Of a DNA stretch of 64,000 nt, positions 6,505 to 61,836 are shown piece after piece. This DNA comes from Octopus vulgaris. Taxonomy: Eukaryota. The notes below the pieces were generated by a model. It had not been told where the DNA came from and ran no database searches. It saw only the letters and a list, made by a program, of their open reading frames with translations. The stretch is from contig OX597818.1 in the NCBI GenBank assembly GCA_951406725.2, forward strand, positions 101,184,001 to 101,248,000, written 5' to 3'. A program made the position numbers and the translations under genes. How positions within the stretch are numbered: position 1 is the first letter of the stretch; the number at the start of each line of letters is the position of its first letter.

Positions 6505-6930
6505 AATATTAGTTTTAATTTAAAACCAGTAGTTTAGCATACAAAAATCTGAAAAATCAGAGAAAAATTCTAATACATGTGTATATTGACAGGGCAAGAC
6601 TGCTAGGTAGTCGACCGCATGCTAGAAATAGATCATCAACGATCAAACTACAAAGAATGTTCTCTAGAGGAAAATTTAGCGAAAACCAGAACCAAATTTG
6701 GCGGGCAGGACAGATGAAAATTTATATAAAAAACAGAATTAATTGCATACCTCGGTTTCAGCCTTTAACAAAAGAATTACTTAAACAATTCAAATGTTCG
6801 TCGCCTCGTCAGTACGATCGTTCAGAATAAATGTAATCTGAAAAGCATTCTTTGTAGTTTGATCGTTGATGATCTATTTTCTAGCATGCGGCCGACTACC
6901 TAGCAGTCTTGTCCTGCCAATATACATACA
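6505..6930 (-). mobile_element. Fold-back element, copy 1 (arms ~6578-6660 and ~6846-6930, HHR in the loop, tail 6505-6577)
   Basis: GGCAAGACTGCTAGGTAGTCG..ATGCTAGAAATAGATCATCAACGATCAAACTACAAAGAATG recurs as a reverse complement at 6846-6930. Confidence 0.8.
6745..6815 (-). ncRNA. Type I hammerhead ribozyme motif with intact core
   Basis: Minus strand reads GTA-CTGACGA-GGC...GCT-GAAAC-CGAG-GTA-TGC. Stem I is short. Confidence 0.7.
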
Positions 6931-6959
6931 TATATATATATATATTTATATTTATATAC

Positions 6960-7335
6960 ATGTGTATATTTGGAGGGCAAGCCACTATGTGGTCGGCCGT
7001 ATGCTAGAAGTAGATCACCTACGATCAAACTACAAAGAAAAGAAACCGCCGGTCTGTGAGTAATTCTGATTTTTTATTTAATTTTCATCTATCTTGCCCG
7101 CATTTTCGTTCTGGTGTCCGCTGAATTTCCCTCTAGAGCACATTCTTTTCTTTGTAGTTTGATCGTAGGTGATCTACTTCTAGCATACGGACGATCACAT
7201 AGTGGCTTGCCCTCCAAATATACACAGGTATTAGAATTTTCTCTGATTTTTCAGATTTTTTGTATGCTAGGCTACTGGTTTTAAATTGATGTTAATTAAA
7301 TTAATATTCAATTTATCTCCCTCATTATTTAAATT
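6960..7335 (+). mobile_element. Fold-back element, copy 2 of the same family in the opposite orientation, with the 5' half of the HHR deleted
   Basis: Arms at ~6960-7041 and ~7145-7226. GAAAC-CGCCG-GTC remains at 7042-7054. The segment 7060-7288 is a diverged reverse complement of 6517-6745. Confidence 0.75.
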
Positions 7336-7350
7336 ATATATATTTATATA

Positions 7351-7772
7351 TAGAGTGGTTGTATACTGTCAACTTAACGTGACAGTAGGGAATTACACCA
7401 CCGCTGTTTAGCCCTAGGAAACATCGACGCTTCCTGCCGGCTTCAACACATTTCCTGTGTCCTTATATATTTACGAGACAGATATCTTCAGCTAGCAGGC
7501 CTCTGCTACTCTAGACCGATGATGGTCAAAGACCCTGAAACATGCGTGTCTCTAGATGCAGGCCTAGCTGTTGGGGGTATTTGTCCCCCCTTTGTAAATA
7601 TATAAGGACACAGGAAATGTGTCGAAGCCGGCAGGAAGCGTCGATGCTTCCTAGGACTAAACAGCGGTAGTGTAATCCCCTACTGTCATGTTAAGTTGAC
7701 AATATACAACCACTCTATCACCCCACCACCGTACATATCTCTATGAGATATTTAGAAATTTAATATTTCTGA
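7351..7772 (+). mobile_element. Rod-like fold-back element in (TA)n: ~125-bp arms (7351-7475, 7593-7717), HHR at the apex, ~55-nt unpaired 3' tail
   Basis: TAGAGTGGTTGTATA... at the left end mirrors ...TATACAACCACTCTA at the right end. All arm mismatches are transitions. Confidence 0.9.
7510..7556 (+). ncRNA. Type I hammerhead ribozyme motif (CCGAUGA core variant)
   Basis: TCTAGA-CCGATGA-T-GGTC-AAA-GACC-CT-GAAAC-ATGCGT-GTC-TCTAGA. Stems I, II and III and the GUC cleavage triplet are all present. Confidence 0.8.
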
Positions 7773-8159: not shown

Positions 8160-8300
8160 TTTGAGGTGAAAGCCTAAACATAGAAGATAGATGTAAGAGG
8201 CGTTGGCGTTCAGGCTAAGAAAGAAAGACCCTGGCTGGCCGCACACCGGTCATGTGGAAGGAGGAGAGACGTTTAGGAGGCGGCGGAATTGAAGGATTAT

Positions 8301-8365
<65 letters not shown>

Positions 8366-8456
8366 CATATACACAAATATACAGACATATATATAGATAT
8401 ATACATATATATATACAAATATACACACATATATATATATATATACACATATATAT

Positions 8457-8516
<60 letters not shown>

Positions 8517-8603
8517 ATATATATGTGTATATATATATATGTGTGTATATTTGTATATATATATGTATATATCTATATATATGTCTGTATATTTGTGTAT
8601 ATG

Positions 8604-8677
<74 letters not shown>

Positions 8678-8833
8678 TGTGTGTGTGTGTGCATAATCCT
8701 TCAATTCCGCCGCCTCCTAAACGTCTCTCCTCCTTCCACATGACCGGTGTGCGGCCAGCCAGGGTCTTTCTTTCTTAGCCTGAACGCCAACGCCTCTTAC
8801 ATCTATCTTCTATGTTTAGGCTTTCACCTCAAA
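8160..8833. repeat. ~670-bp spacer-less palindrome centred on (TA)n at ~8497
   Basis: The unique segment 8160-8301 is the exact reverse complement of 8692-8833. The internal CA/TA tracts are mirrored but differ in length. The ORF track shows near-identical ORFs on both strands. Confidence 0.95.
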
Positions 8834-35613: not shown

Positions 35614-36063
35614 ATATATAGGGGAGTTCACGAATAAAACACAAAACGAAGATAGATGGTGTATTAAACACACAGATGTATTAGCGTAACGCTCAGGAAA
35701 TTGAAAATAATCTTTTACGTTTCGAGCCTACGCTCTTCTACAGAAAGGGACACTGATCAAAAACAAGGAAAGTAACCCTTTCTGTAGAGGAGCGTAGGCT
35801 CGAAACGTAAAAGTCTTTTCAATTTCCTGAGCATTATACTAATACATCTGTTTGTTTTATACCACACTTGTCTTCGTCCTTTGTTTTTTTCGTGAACTCT
35901 CCCCATATATCACATGCTTACGCGATAGCACCAGTTGATCCTGGCATTTAAATCACACACGGACTTCTCCACTGGAATTTCTACCTATCTACCCTTTACG
36001 GATTCTCTTTTGGACATTTACCCTTAGGCTGCACTTTTCCTACCTACGTATGACTGTGGACGC

Positions 36064-38572: not shown

Positions 38573-39234
38573 GTATAACGTATACCTATTTCTTTGCTAC
38601 TTTGCACTCAGTTTCTAGAGACATCTTAAGGGACATACTTTACTAATATCTTTTTCGGTTTATGAATACACTCTTATTTCCGACAAACAGAAATCTGCAT
38701 AATATATACATACATCATAGAGAACAATTCCATATTTACATATGTGAAAGTATTTGAAGTAGAATTAACTGTTGTAATCATAAATAAATCTGGCTATATG
38801 TGAATATTTGTGAACATATTAATAGGTTTGGAAATGCGAGTATATTTACAGACGGAGCTATATGTGCACACGCAGAAGTAGACATAGAAAATCACAGAAG
38901 CAAGTTTATGCATACGTTCAAACTCACAAAAGAGAAACCAGATACCCAAACGTATGATATACACAACTATTGTATGTGTGTCATGAGTTTTCCATATATG
39001 TATGTTGTATATGTATATACGTGTGTAGTCTTAATCTTTTACTTGTTTCGGTCATTTGACTGTGGCCATGCTAGAGCACTACCATTAGTCGAGCAAATCG
39101 AAACCAGGACTTATTCTTTGTAAGCCTATTACTTATTCTATCGGTCTCTTTTGCCGAACCGCTAAATTACGGATACGTAAACACACCAGTATCTGTTGTC
39201 AAGCGATGGTGCGGGGCCAAACACAAACAAACAC

Positions 39235-39334
39235 NNNNNNNNNNNNNNNNNNNNNNNNNNNNNNNNNNNNNNNNNNNNNNNNNNNNNNNNNNNNNNNNNN
39301 NNNNNNNNNNNNNNNNNNNNNNNNNNNNNNNNNN
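39235..39334. other. Assembly gap (100 N)
   Basis: Direct reading. Confidence 0.99.
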
Positions 39335-44876
<5,542 letters not shown>

Positions 44877-57931: not shown

Positions 57932-58868
57932 GGGGAAAATTTTCAATAATTTTTAGGAAAAGTTTTCGAAAATTTTCGGGAAAAATTTTCAAAAGTTTTT
58001 GGGATAAATTTTCAAAAATTATTGGGAAAAAATTTCAAAAGATTTTGGGGAAAATTTTCCAAAAAATTTGAAAGAAATTTCGAAAAATATTTGCGAAAAA
58101 TTTTGAAAAATTTTTGGGAAAAATATTCTAAGAATCTTTCAGGAAAATTTTCCAAAATTTTTGGGGATAATTTTCAAGAATTTTGGGGAAAAATTTTTGA
58201 AAAATTTTCGCCTTAAAAACTTTTAAAAGGTTTTTCGAAATATTTCATCAAAAAGTTTTTTTGAAAATTCTCATCAAAATTTTTGAAGAGATTTTTTAAA
58301 ATTTTCATCAAAATATTCGAAAATTTTTTGAAAATTTTCATCAAAATTTTTGAATATTTTCAAAAGATTTTGGGAAAATTTTCAAAAGATTTGGAAAAGA
58401 TTTAGCAAAATTTTTGGGAAAAATTTTCAAAACTTTTTTGAGAAAATTTTCAAATAATTTGGGAAAAATTTTGAAAAATTTTGTGAAAAAATTTTCAAAA
58501 ATTTTTTTTGGCAAAATTTTCAAGAACTTTGGGGGAAAATTTTAGGTAAATTTTTTCAAAAATTTTTGGGGAAAATTAAAAAAAATTTTAGGGAAACCTT
58601 TTCAAAAATATTTGGGGAAATTTTTCAAAAGTTTTGGGGAAAAGTTTTCAGAAATTTTTCGGGAAAATTTTCCAAAAGTTTTCGTTAATATTTTCGAAAA
58701 TTTTTTGGAAAATTCTGATTGAAATTTTCAAAAATCTTTTTATAAATTTTGATGGAAATTTTCAGAATTTTTTTTCCAAAAATTTTGATGGAAATATCCC
58801 CAAAACTTTTGAATAATTTTGATGAAAATTTTAAAATAATTTTCAAAATCTTGATGAAAATTTTCAAA
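57932..58868. repeat. Degenerate A/T-tract minisatellite (~11/22-bp unit, GGAAAATTTTCAAAAATTTTTG-like)
   Basis: Direct reading. Sub-blocks occur in both orientations. Confidence 0.9.
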
Positions 58869-59113
58869 TAATCTCCTATATCGTACGTCGAACGTTCGAT
58901 AAAACAAAAATTCAACGCAACAAATCTGATAAATTTGTGTAAGAAATGTCTATATGACATCTTCAAAAATGTAGAAAAAATCAAAGTCAGTGAACATCTC
59001 AGCAGTTACCGTCGATATGAATCCAATATCTCTAAACCATACCGAAAATTTTCAGTGTATACGAAAAACATACAAACGCACTAAATCCATTATCAAAACC
59101 TTATCAAAAGAGT

Positions 59114-59480: not shown

Positions 59481-59556
59481 ACGTCGCTCAAACGCTTTTT
59501 ATCTTCACGTAAGAAAAATTCTTAAGTCCATATGCTGAAGATTCTATATATATGTG

Positions 59557-59618
<62 letters not shown>

Positions 59619-59629
59619 GTATATATATA

Positions 59630-59671
<42 letters not shown>

Positions 59672-59701
59672 GATGACAATGAACATACGAGTTAATATGC
59701 T

Positions 59702-60095
59702 AAAATGCTAAAATAATTTTATAAAAAAAACATTTCAGTGCGTTCGCCAACCGACTGGCCCGGACGCAACGGCGTTGGCAGCCGGGATCGCGCGGGCTGA
59801 GCCGAATGGGTCACCACCTACGCCGCAACCACGCGGCGCCGCTCCGCGGGGGGGGCGGTAGTCGGACGCGAAGGAGAGCGGCGTCAACGGCAAGTCCAGG
59901 CCGCGCGCAGAGCTACCGACGACGGCTTCCTCGGCGCCTCGCTACCGGAGAATCACTAACCGACGCGCTGTAGAGCGGCGGCCTTGACCCGGTCGGTTCG
60001 GCCTGTGTGAGCCCGTCGGCAGCACGCCGTCGCGTCCGGGCCAGTCGGTTGGTGTACGCACTGAAATGTTTTTTATAAAATTAGTTTAGCATTTT
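59702..60095 (+). mobile_element. GC-rich fold-back element between (TA)n and (CA)n
   Basis: ~85-bp terminal inverted arms (AAAATGCTAAA..CATTTCAGTGCGT..CCAACCGACTGGCCCGGACGC) plus inner helices. The mobile-element call is inferred from the architecture. Confidence 0.7.
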
Positions 60096-61836
60096 CTATC
60101 TTGACTTTTTTCGCACACACACACACAAACACATACACACACACACACGCACACACACACATATATATATAATGTGTGTGTGTGGCTGTGTGTGTGCGTG
60201 TGTGTAGTATTAATCTATAATTGTTTGAATGCACAGAATTTAGGTCATATGATTAATCTTCAGCGCTAACACATCTCTAAGTCAATGGAATTTACTTTCA
60301 GCTTACTATTTCATACCATTTTGTGAGTCAATTTCCACGTGTTTCCAACAGGATATTCCTTTAGATTTTCTTTCTTACACTATCCATACGGTAAAGAGAA
60401 AATATGCGTAGCAAATCTCTAAAAACAGAAATAAATGAGGTTTTCAATTTAGGATGGACGTTTGTATGAAAATTCTATTCATGGAGACTTAATATAAGAA
60501 CAATATCGCGCATGTTATTATAAGACATTTGTCAAGACACGCTATTAGGAGAGACACAAAGAGTGTATTCAATTTGAAGCATATTTTTTTTATATAAGGT
60601 TCCCAAGTATATTTCTTTGAAAATTACATCTTGTGACGTACCTGGAAAATGCAGTTTATGTAAATGAAAATTATTGCTGAATTGGTCAATTATAATGTAT
60701 CGCAAATAAATATCAGGAAAAAATACGCTTTAAAACATCAAATAATGCTGGTAATTTTTTGCTGAGAGTAAATAAGGTTAGTAGTTTACAATGTTAAATG
60801 TGTTTATGGGAAATATTGTTGGCGCAGTAACAAATAAAATGGCGAAAATAAGGTATCCTTTGTATCAAAAAATAAACAAGCGTGGAACTTAGAGTGTAAA
60901 GTAATTTAGATATATTACCGAAGGGACAAATTAAATAAGATGGTAAACAAAACGAAAGAATTGAATGAAAAATCTTAAATAATTGGGAGACCAAGAGAGA
61001 CAAGCCTACTTTGTATTTAAATGTACACACAGTTCAAAAAATAAATACGCAGCTCTATTTACTTCAAGAAAAACATTAAAAGTAAAGAGGACAAAACAGG
61101 CAACCAATAACGCTTCGCTTTCTTTTCAGTATGATTATTTTTGTATTTATTTATTTACAATAATTGTGCCAAATAGGTTGTATTTACGAATTCTCAGAAA
61201 GTTTATAATAATGAAAATAACTGATACTAAGAAATGTAAAAGAGAGATAATGTCTGTAACGGTAAGCTATTTTGAAATTAGGTTGTGGTTGTTTCCAACA
61301 GAATGTATAATCGTACATTCATACGCATACAGGCACAAATGAATGCAGCTATGCACCGATATATGGTGTGATGTCTATATGAAACGAGTAGGGGATTAAA
61401 TTACGAGTTTTTTCTCTTGTAATCCAAAATATCGCCACTGGGTTGGTCATAGTGCTATTCACTATAACTTGTCTTGAATTGTTTTTGGGATAAGAGGCAT
61501 TAGTGGTCTTGTTGTAATTGGTTTTGTTTTGTGTATTCATTTTACAGGGGTTTGTAGGCGTGCATAAATGTGTTCGTTAGTGTTTTTTTTCTCTATTGTT
61601 TAAGGCCATGGGGGCTCCATGTCTGCGTCCAGTGCATGTAGGGATACAAATATGTGAATGGGAATTTATATTAGGCGTGGTGGGAAAACAGTCTCTTTGG
61701 TAGGTGTCAGAAAAACTACCTATTTGGCAGGTGGCCGCTGCATTAGGGCATGCGTGTTTGTATTATATGGGTGTGTTGATGAATGCTCTAGTAAAATTTT
61801 CTCTGTCGTGTGTACTCCGTGTAAGTTGTACCTCAT

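Follow-up and report, generated by a model that had tools for sequence, protein, structure and literature searches.

A GC-rich fold-back in the genome of Octopus vulgaris is by alignment a decayed copy of the host's own 18S rRNA expansion segment, joined to the base at the predicted hammerhead cut of a Penelope-like element (PLE). It lies in the 64,000-nucleotide stretch of DNA analyzed here (the window, whose first letter is position 1), and the same 18S base adjoins the predicted cuts of three other PLE families. From these junctions, we consider it probable, at about 60%, that a 270-base 18S fragment whose 3′ end is fixed was ligated in an RtcB-like manner to the ribozyme's 5′-OH end and was then retrotransposed.

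The GC island (59739–60060) is 71% GC and contains 54 CpG dinucleotides, and the surrounding window is mostly 25–40% GC. The island sits within a fold-back, and 57 nt of its outer arms pair with 91% complementarity. A sequence-only reading of this DNA had described a sharp GC- and CpG-rich island with complementary arms and no ORF, and this description held: the motifs it quoted lie where it placed them, and the element contains no long ATG-started ORF. The plus strand of the element folds at −252.2 kcal/mol (z = −14.8 against shuffles), and the minus strand folds almost as strongly (−238.3 kcal/mol, z = −12.7).

From left to right, the locus begins with a (TA)n microsatellite (59546–59669), the left target, which has no fixed-length target-site duplication (TSD). 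The element starts at 59670–59701 on the minus strand with a decayed form of the optional "tail" by which some family A copies are extended; it is present on this arm only and resembles the stretch past the common end in copies such as L041; it is the 32-nt tail of the sequence-only reading and reads as an optional one-sided PLE extension. The left arm proper (59702–59738, minus strand) is a family A pLTR piece that starts at the predicted hammerhead cut, as the 3′ cleavage product would. It is followed on the minus strand by 18S bases 1910–2179 in antisense (59739–59969, 76% identical to the contig C20 rDNA array in a gapped alignment), by a three-base turn that joins the two arms and is either untemplated or decayed (59970–59972), and by a second, 5′-truncated sense copy of 18S bases 2092–2179 on the plus strand (59973–60060, 89% identical to rDNA). 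The right arm (60061–60112, plus strand) is a family A pLTR piece running from the predicted cut to the common end of the element, and the right flank is a (CA)n/(TA)n/(TG)n microsatellite (60113–60207).

The octopus genome contains no second copy of the whole element, and its own junction occurs once. When four sequencing runs (contigs) were compared with the element, no piece spanned it and no joints were found; in run X19, 38 records, which represent the hammerhead side of other copies, diverge from the element at 60060. The insertion is thus likely to be a single, dead copy, and the locus probably has no function. Elsewhere in the window, there are further long inverted repeats at 6517–7718, 8160–8833, 35614–35910, 39031–39933, and 41152–41455, those at 35.6 and 41.2 kb being near hammerhead-like cores, and a degenerate AT-rich tandem repeat with periods of ∼23 and 34 nt occupies 58500–58870.

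The origin of the core was identified by a search of the animal's own 2.8-Gb genome, in which it matched copies spaced at 18.3 kb on contig C20; Rfam found SSU, 5.8S, and LSU rRNA in this tandem repeat. The rRNA genes of the array (L031 and L032, G000:C20) are very long and GC-rich, with an 18S rRNA of 2641 nt and a 28S rRNA of 4890 nt. The captured stretch, 18S bases 1910–2179, is a large insertion at position 1377 of the Rfam SSU model, and we take it to be expansion segment V7/ES9S. The match is colinear with the host SSU rRNA gene, as in an 18S-derived pseudogene fragment. An 18-nt repeat of the present rDNA array is missing from the window copy, as it is from an old dispersed piece (L020), and the window copy therefore derives from an older rDNA variant.

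In the rDNA, bases 1910–2179 are 77% GC and form one long hairpin, which explains some of the inner pairings and the hammerhead-like CCGACGA-CGG…CCG-GAGA segment of the sequence-only reading. That segment, CCGACGACGG, is antisense rRNA and lacks a GAAA core. We rejected a ribozyme within 59739–60060 on these grounds and on the absence of an Rfam ribozyme match: the scan that had been proposed as a check gave no ribozyme in the window at gathering score and none in the island at E ≤ 5. The idea of a hairpin retroelement holds in that the insertion is hairpin-shaped and related to the hammerhead hairpins, whereas 18S rRNA occupies the place given to an unrecognized ribozyme. A match to rDNA spacer, which had been named as evidence that would count against that idea, is close to what was found, except that the match is to the 18S coding region and not to spacer.

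The arms belong to a probable PLE family, here called family A. The genome contains 851 exact matches to the 23 nt with which the arm begins. In most of 104 copies, the sequence upstream of the arm start consists of CAG, UUGAAAA, a helix of 4 bp, GAAA, and a palindrome followed by UA. By motif inspection, the family A parent carries a minimal type I hammerhead with a U3-A8 core; the 3-8 pair is U-A in 63 of 67 parsed cores. Minimal hammerheads with a palindromic helix III and a U3-A8 core variant have been described in PLE terminal repeats (PMC4209133). Rfam reported no hammerhead, only microsatellite noise, in four intact parent copies. In the parent element, the hammerhead proper directly preceded the arms; the window copy lacks it, and in both arms rRNA stands in place of all element sequence upstream of the predicted cut. 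The junction reads GGCGAACGCA followed by CTGAAATG, with two changes in the right arm, so that 18S base 2179 adjoins the base that comes right after GAAA-palindrome-UA in family A.

Other traits of the locus are also those of a PLE insertion, namely an inverted, 5′-truncated copy, a one-sided tail, and a microsatellite target without a clear TSD; one-sided tails of 30–40 bp have been described for PLEs (PMC8557442). One family A copy (L068) has a frame on the same strand, ending ∼600 nt upstream of the tail, in which GIY-YIG-type motifs can be seen by eye, without a Pfam match. We conclude that the arms are probably the 3′ product of the predicted minimal hammerhead of a PLE and that rRNA joins them exactly at the predicted cut. 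A MITE or other DNA transposon was rejected: elsewhere, the arm sequence mostly stands behind an intact hammerhead, there is no second whole copy, and the check for TSDs that had been suggested as a means of excluding a MITE found none.

A search by junction pattern found the same 18S base at the predicted cuts of three other families. A complete 18S piece (1909–2179) is folded back between two family B arms on contig C1 (L019), and 5′-truncated pieces ending at 2179 are joined to family C on contig C3 (L074) and to family D on contig C7 (L077). In each of these three, the element starts just past GAAA-palindrome-UA. Families A–D are unrelated in sequence, and their 3-8 pairs covary, being U-A (A), C-G (B and D), and A-U (C). 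By inspection, all four have a 3-8 pair, a helix II, GAAA, a palindromic helix III, an NUH cut site, and a short helix I; in one set of family C copies (L116–L130), the core combines the A3-U8 pair with a 2-bp helix II. RVT_1 or GIY-YIG Pfam matches lie in line with the family C and D tails, above the cut-off for D and below it for C, and a GIY-YIG frame near one of the family B tails runs antiparallel to it. There are no added bases at any of the four 18S junctions.

As a junction-unbiased sample, we used a probe lying 60–80 nt upstream of site 2179, which had 33 matches in the genome. Eighteen are rDNA units or pieces that read through to the 18S end, one lacks an 18S match, and the other 14 represent 13 events. 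Of these 13 dispersed events, four end at 2179; the other nine end at 2185, 2198, 2218, 2249, 2354, 2437–2439, 2599 (twice), and 2606. Under a uniform null, the probability of four in 13 at 2179 is 8e-5, a crude figure with n = 4 that includes the window copy, the seed of the search. The window copy and the family B copy derive from different rDNA variants and are therefore separate events. An amplified rRNA-derived SINE was rejected as their source: each of the four chimeras has a tail of its own, and at least two rRNA variants are represented among them. Two candidates for further junctions (L075 and L137) proved to be ordinary 18S pieces in which the rRNA sequence continues past 2179. Two other 18S pieces were recorded, one of which (L141, G000:C14:14478900-14480900) ends at 2185, 6 nt past the shared site, and the other of which (L146, G000:C94:8000-10300) consists of bases 1927–2045 in two orientations within (TAA)n, with ends at a common base.

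Other insertions also have breakpoints at the predicted cut. Among 104 copies of family A and 73 of family D, those in which the element breaks off close to the ribozyme cluster at the cut: in 7 of 17, the break is within 3 nt of it (p about 0.01, with copies sorted by eye and L077 left out), and three fold-backs (L082, L104, and L205) turn at the cut. A further chimera (L290, G000:C3:84712613-84712715) contains a full U6 RNA whose oligo-U end is joined, again without added bases, to the family A cut in a fold-back within (TA)n, a layout identical to that of the window element. Because U6 has no terminal A in common with the element, this copy fixes the acceptor base. Among the 48 U6 copies examined, it is the one with a known PLE tail. 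By eye, ∼35 of these 48 (L272–L319) pass directly into SINE-like sequence, the change often falling at one of a few recurrent points; one (L317) is a U6-U6 join, and two (L305 and L316) have AT-rich tails. Sequences that are neither element nor rRNA are joined at, or ≤3 nt from, hammerhead cuts in three other copies (L058, L115, and L035).

Octopus 28S rRNA has a break at H88, a site-specific post-transcriptional cut (PMC13321053), and the published break motif occurs once in the 28S rRNA of this genome. The sequence just upstream of the break had 82 genomic matches, of which 50 were examined: eight continue to the 28S end, two extend beyond the sequence retrieved, and the other 40 could be resolved. 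None of the 40 carries tails A–D, and H88 therefore failed as a positive control for ligation. Of the resolved pieces, 28 (among L320–L369) end 2–28 nt before the break, mostly 14–26 nt before it. The genome thus seems to record the H88 end, likely by a different copying route, and capture at PLE cuts does not take in every rRNA break.

The G-U wobbles and GC content of the island have another origin than had been supposed. In the 16-mer pair that was said to pair fully only if five G-U wobbles are allowed, and hence to point to an RNA fold on the plus strand, comparison with rRNA shows a single C>T change in the left 16-mer and four in the right, and four of these five changes are at CpG. Because all five wobbles are C>T changes at G-C pairs, they record the decay of a palindrome that was once perfectly paired by G-C. 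The wobbles are real, but they arose by decay; the minus strand folds too, and the strand bias is not significant (seven G-U pairs on the plus strand and one on the minus strand in the palindromic stem, two-sided p = 0.07; 11 and four overall, p = 0.12). When read on the RNA strand against rRNA, A>G accounts for one of 26 changes in the left arm and none of 10 in the right. The substitution polarity therefore shows no editing drive, and an ADAR-hyperedited retrocopy was rejected for lack of an excess of A>G (1/36 changes). The high GC of the island, which had been attributed to repeated A-to-I editing, was inherited and not gained, having dropped from 77% in rDNA to 71%.

Taken together, these observations suggest the following route. 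Hammerhead cleavage leaves a 5′-OH. The PLE transcript would cleave itself at GUA, and the downstream piece would be left with such an end. Cuts in 18S rRNA after A2179 and near U1909/A1910 would free the GC-rich expansion hairpin with a 2′,3′-cyclic phosphate; the occurrence of the same 18S end in four families makes it likely that the rRNA is cut at one fixed site. By analogy with U6/LINE-1 chimeras, RtcB could then join the two RNAs. RtcB joins cyclic-phosphate to 5′-OH ends and makes U6/LINE-1 chimeras, U6 being a cyclic-phosphate RNA (PMC6789731), and it circularizes retrozyme RNA in vitro (PMC7229834). Finally, the PLE reverse transcriptase would insert the chimera into (TA)n. The inverted pair with a tail on one arm is the layout at the locus, and the tailed and tailless arms may reflect two start sites on one RNA or, alternatively, the fold-back of a single cDNA. 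The C>T decay that now makes G-C pairs look like G-U came later.

The same junctions would arise without ligation if the PLE reverse transcriptase ran off the ribozyme-cut 5′ end of its own RNA and onto a free 18S fragment at its 3′ end. In favor of such a jump, the rRNA end, GCA, resembles the GUA that it replaces and shares its final A, six of the eight last bases match in family D, and the fold-backs that turn at the cut are evidence that the enzyme gets as far as this end and can prime anew there. Set against these points are the lack of untemplated bases at the four 18S junctions and at U6, the standing of U6 as the classical RtcB donor, and the absence of tails A–D from pieces near the abundant H88 end; we regard a jump between free ends as rather unlikely, although it is the strongest rival to ligation. 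Ligation is favored because the junctions are clean and because of the U6 case. It is also conceivable that the rRNA was never cut and that the enzyme jumped internally onto the intact 18S hairpin and stopped where the helix enters the body of the ribosome. Both ends of the piece do lie at the base of the hairpin, and a PLE reverse transcriptase can initiate internally at a stem-loop (PMC11167929). The use of one and the same base in four divergent families, and the joining of U6 to the common acceptor site by its natural 3′ end, make this route improbable.

Dispersed rRNA pieces are common in this genome, and rDNA or rRNA might have been copied into a break in a PLE copy through microhomology. 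Such pieces end at scattered places and none has these tails, and a repair patch leaves unexplained the fixed donor and acceptor bases in four families and the equal junctions in both arms, so that we consider it very improbable. The view of the sequence-only reading, a hairpin retroelement with an unrecognized ribozyme or one driven GC-rich by A-to-I editing, could draw on the strong fold and on the seven-to-one G-U bias of the stem. Given an rRNA core, inherited GC, a single A>G among 36 changes, wobbles that are C>T decay, and no element family, it retains virtually no credence. We thus return to ligation at the ribozyme-cut end as the preferred reading.

In its mode of origin, the element resembles two kinds of known chimeras, here with an acceptor fixed by a predicted ribozyme. 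As in the RtcB-made U6/LINE-1 pseudogenes (Moldovan et al. 2019, PMC6789731), a cellular RNA stands in sense at the 5′ end of a retroelement RNA, was retrotransposed, and has a clean junction. In contrast to those pseudogenes, the acceptor would be set by a ribozyme cut and not by random breakage of L1, the donor comes from within 18S rRNA and has one fixed end, and the inserted product is folded back on itself inside a microsatellite. The 28S rRNA/LINE-1 chimeras also contain rRNA fragments of ∼270 nt, mostly in sense and fused to a retroelement, for which ligation or template switching has been proposed (PMC11838501); they involve LINE-1 without a ribozyme-defined junction, and 18S, Penelope, and ribozymes go unmentioned in the accessible text of that paper. 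The EN+ PLEs that carry minimal hammerheads in the pLTR (Cervera and de la Pena 2014, PMC4209133; Craig et al. 2021, PMC8557442; Frangieh et al. 2024, PMC11167929) share with the parent of the element the palindromic helix III and the U3-A8 core, and with the element itself the inverted 5′-truncated copy, the one-sided tail, and the microsatellite target, whereas capture of a cellular RNA at the cut is not described in the portions of these papers available to us. Metazoan non-LTR retrozymes (PMC7229834; bioRxiv 10.64898/2026.07.22.740005) have PLE-related hammerheads, the cut ends of which are RtcB substrates in vitro; these retrozymes occur as tandem repeats, retain the ribozyme, and circularize, whereas the window copy has lost the ribozyme and is unamplified. 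Hidden breaks in rRNA, including octopus H88, are likewise site-specific cuts (PMC13321053), and the cut proposed here would lie in a small-subunit expansion segment; the term "18S" does not occur in the main text of the H88 paper. In a literature search covering main texts outside most subscription journals, we found no report of rRNA capture at PLE hammerhead cuts or of an 18S break in a cephalopod. What appears to be new is the recurrence of a base-exact 18S fragment at PLE cuts, which suggests a cleavage of 18S rRNA for which we found no published description.

These findings bear first on the PLEs. In one purified PLE system, cleavage was weak and protein-assisted, and no reads ended at the anole PLE cut (Frangieh et al., PMC11167929). 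That the junctions in four families agree with the predicted cuts to the base is indirect, genomic evidence for hammerhead cleavage of PLE RNA in vivo, in cells that give rise to heritable insertions. For the host, the fixed donor end predicts cleavage of one phosphodiester bond, A2179-G2180 of 18S rRNA, in an animal that has been studied for its 28S break. We propose tentatively, as a possibility that we do not yet favor, that a site-specific cut in 18S rRNA frees a 270-nt hairpin with a cyclic phosphate and that germ-line PLE hammerheads, together with the tRNA ligase, trap such RNA ends. If so, there would be a second system of rRNA breaks, in the small subunit, and PLE insertions would be a fossil record of RNA ends, such that the sequence upstream of PLE cuts in any genome could be mined as a catalogue of cleaved cellular RNAs.
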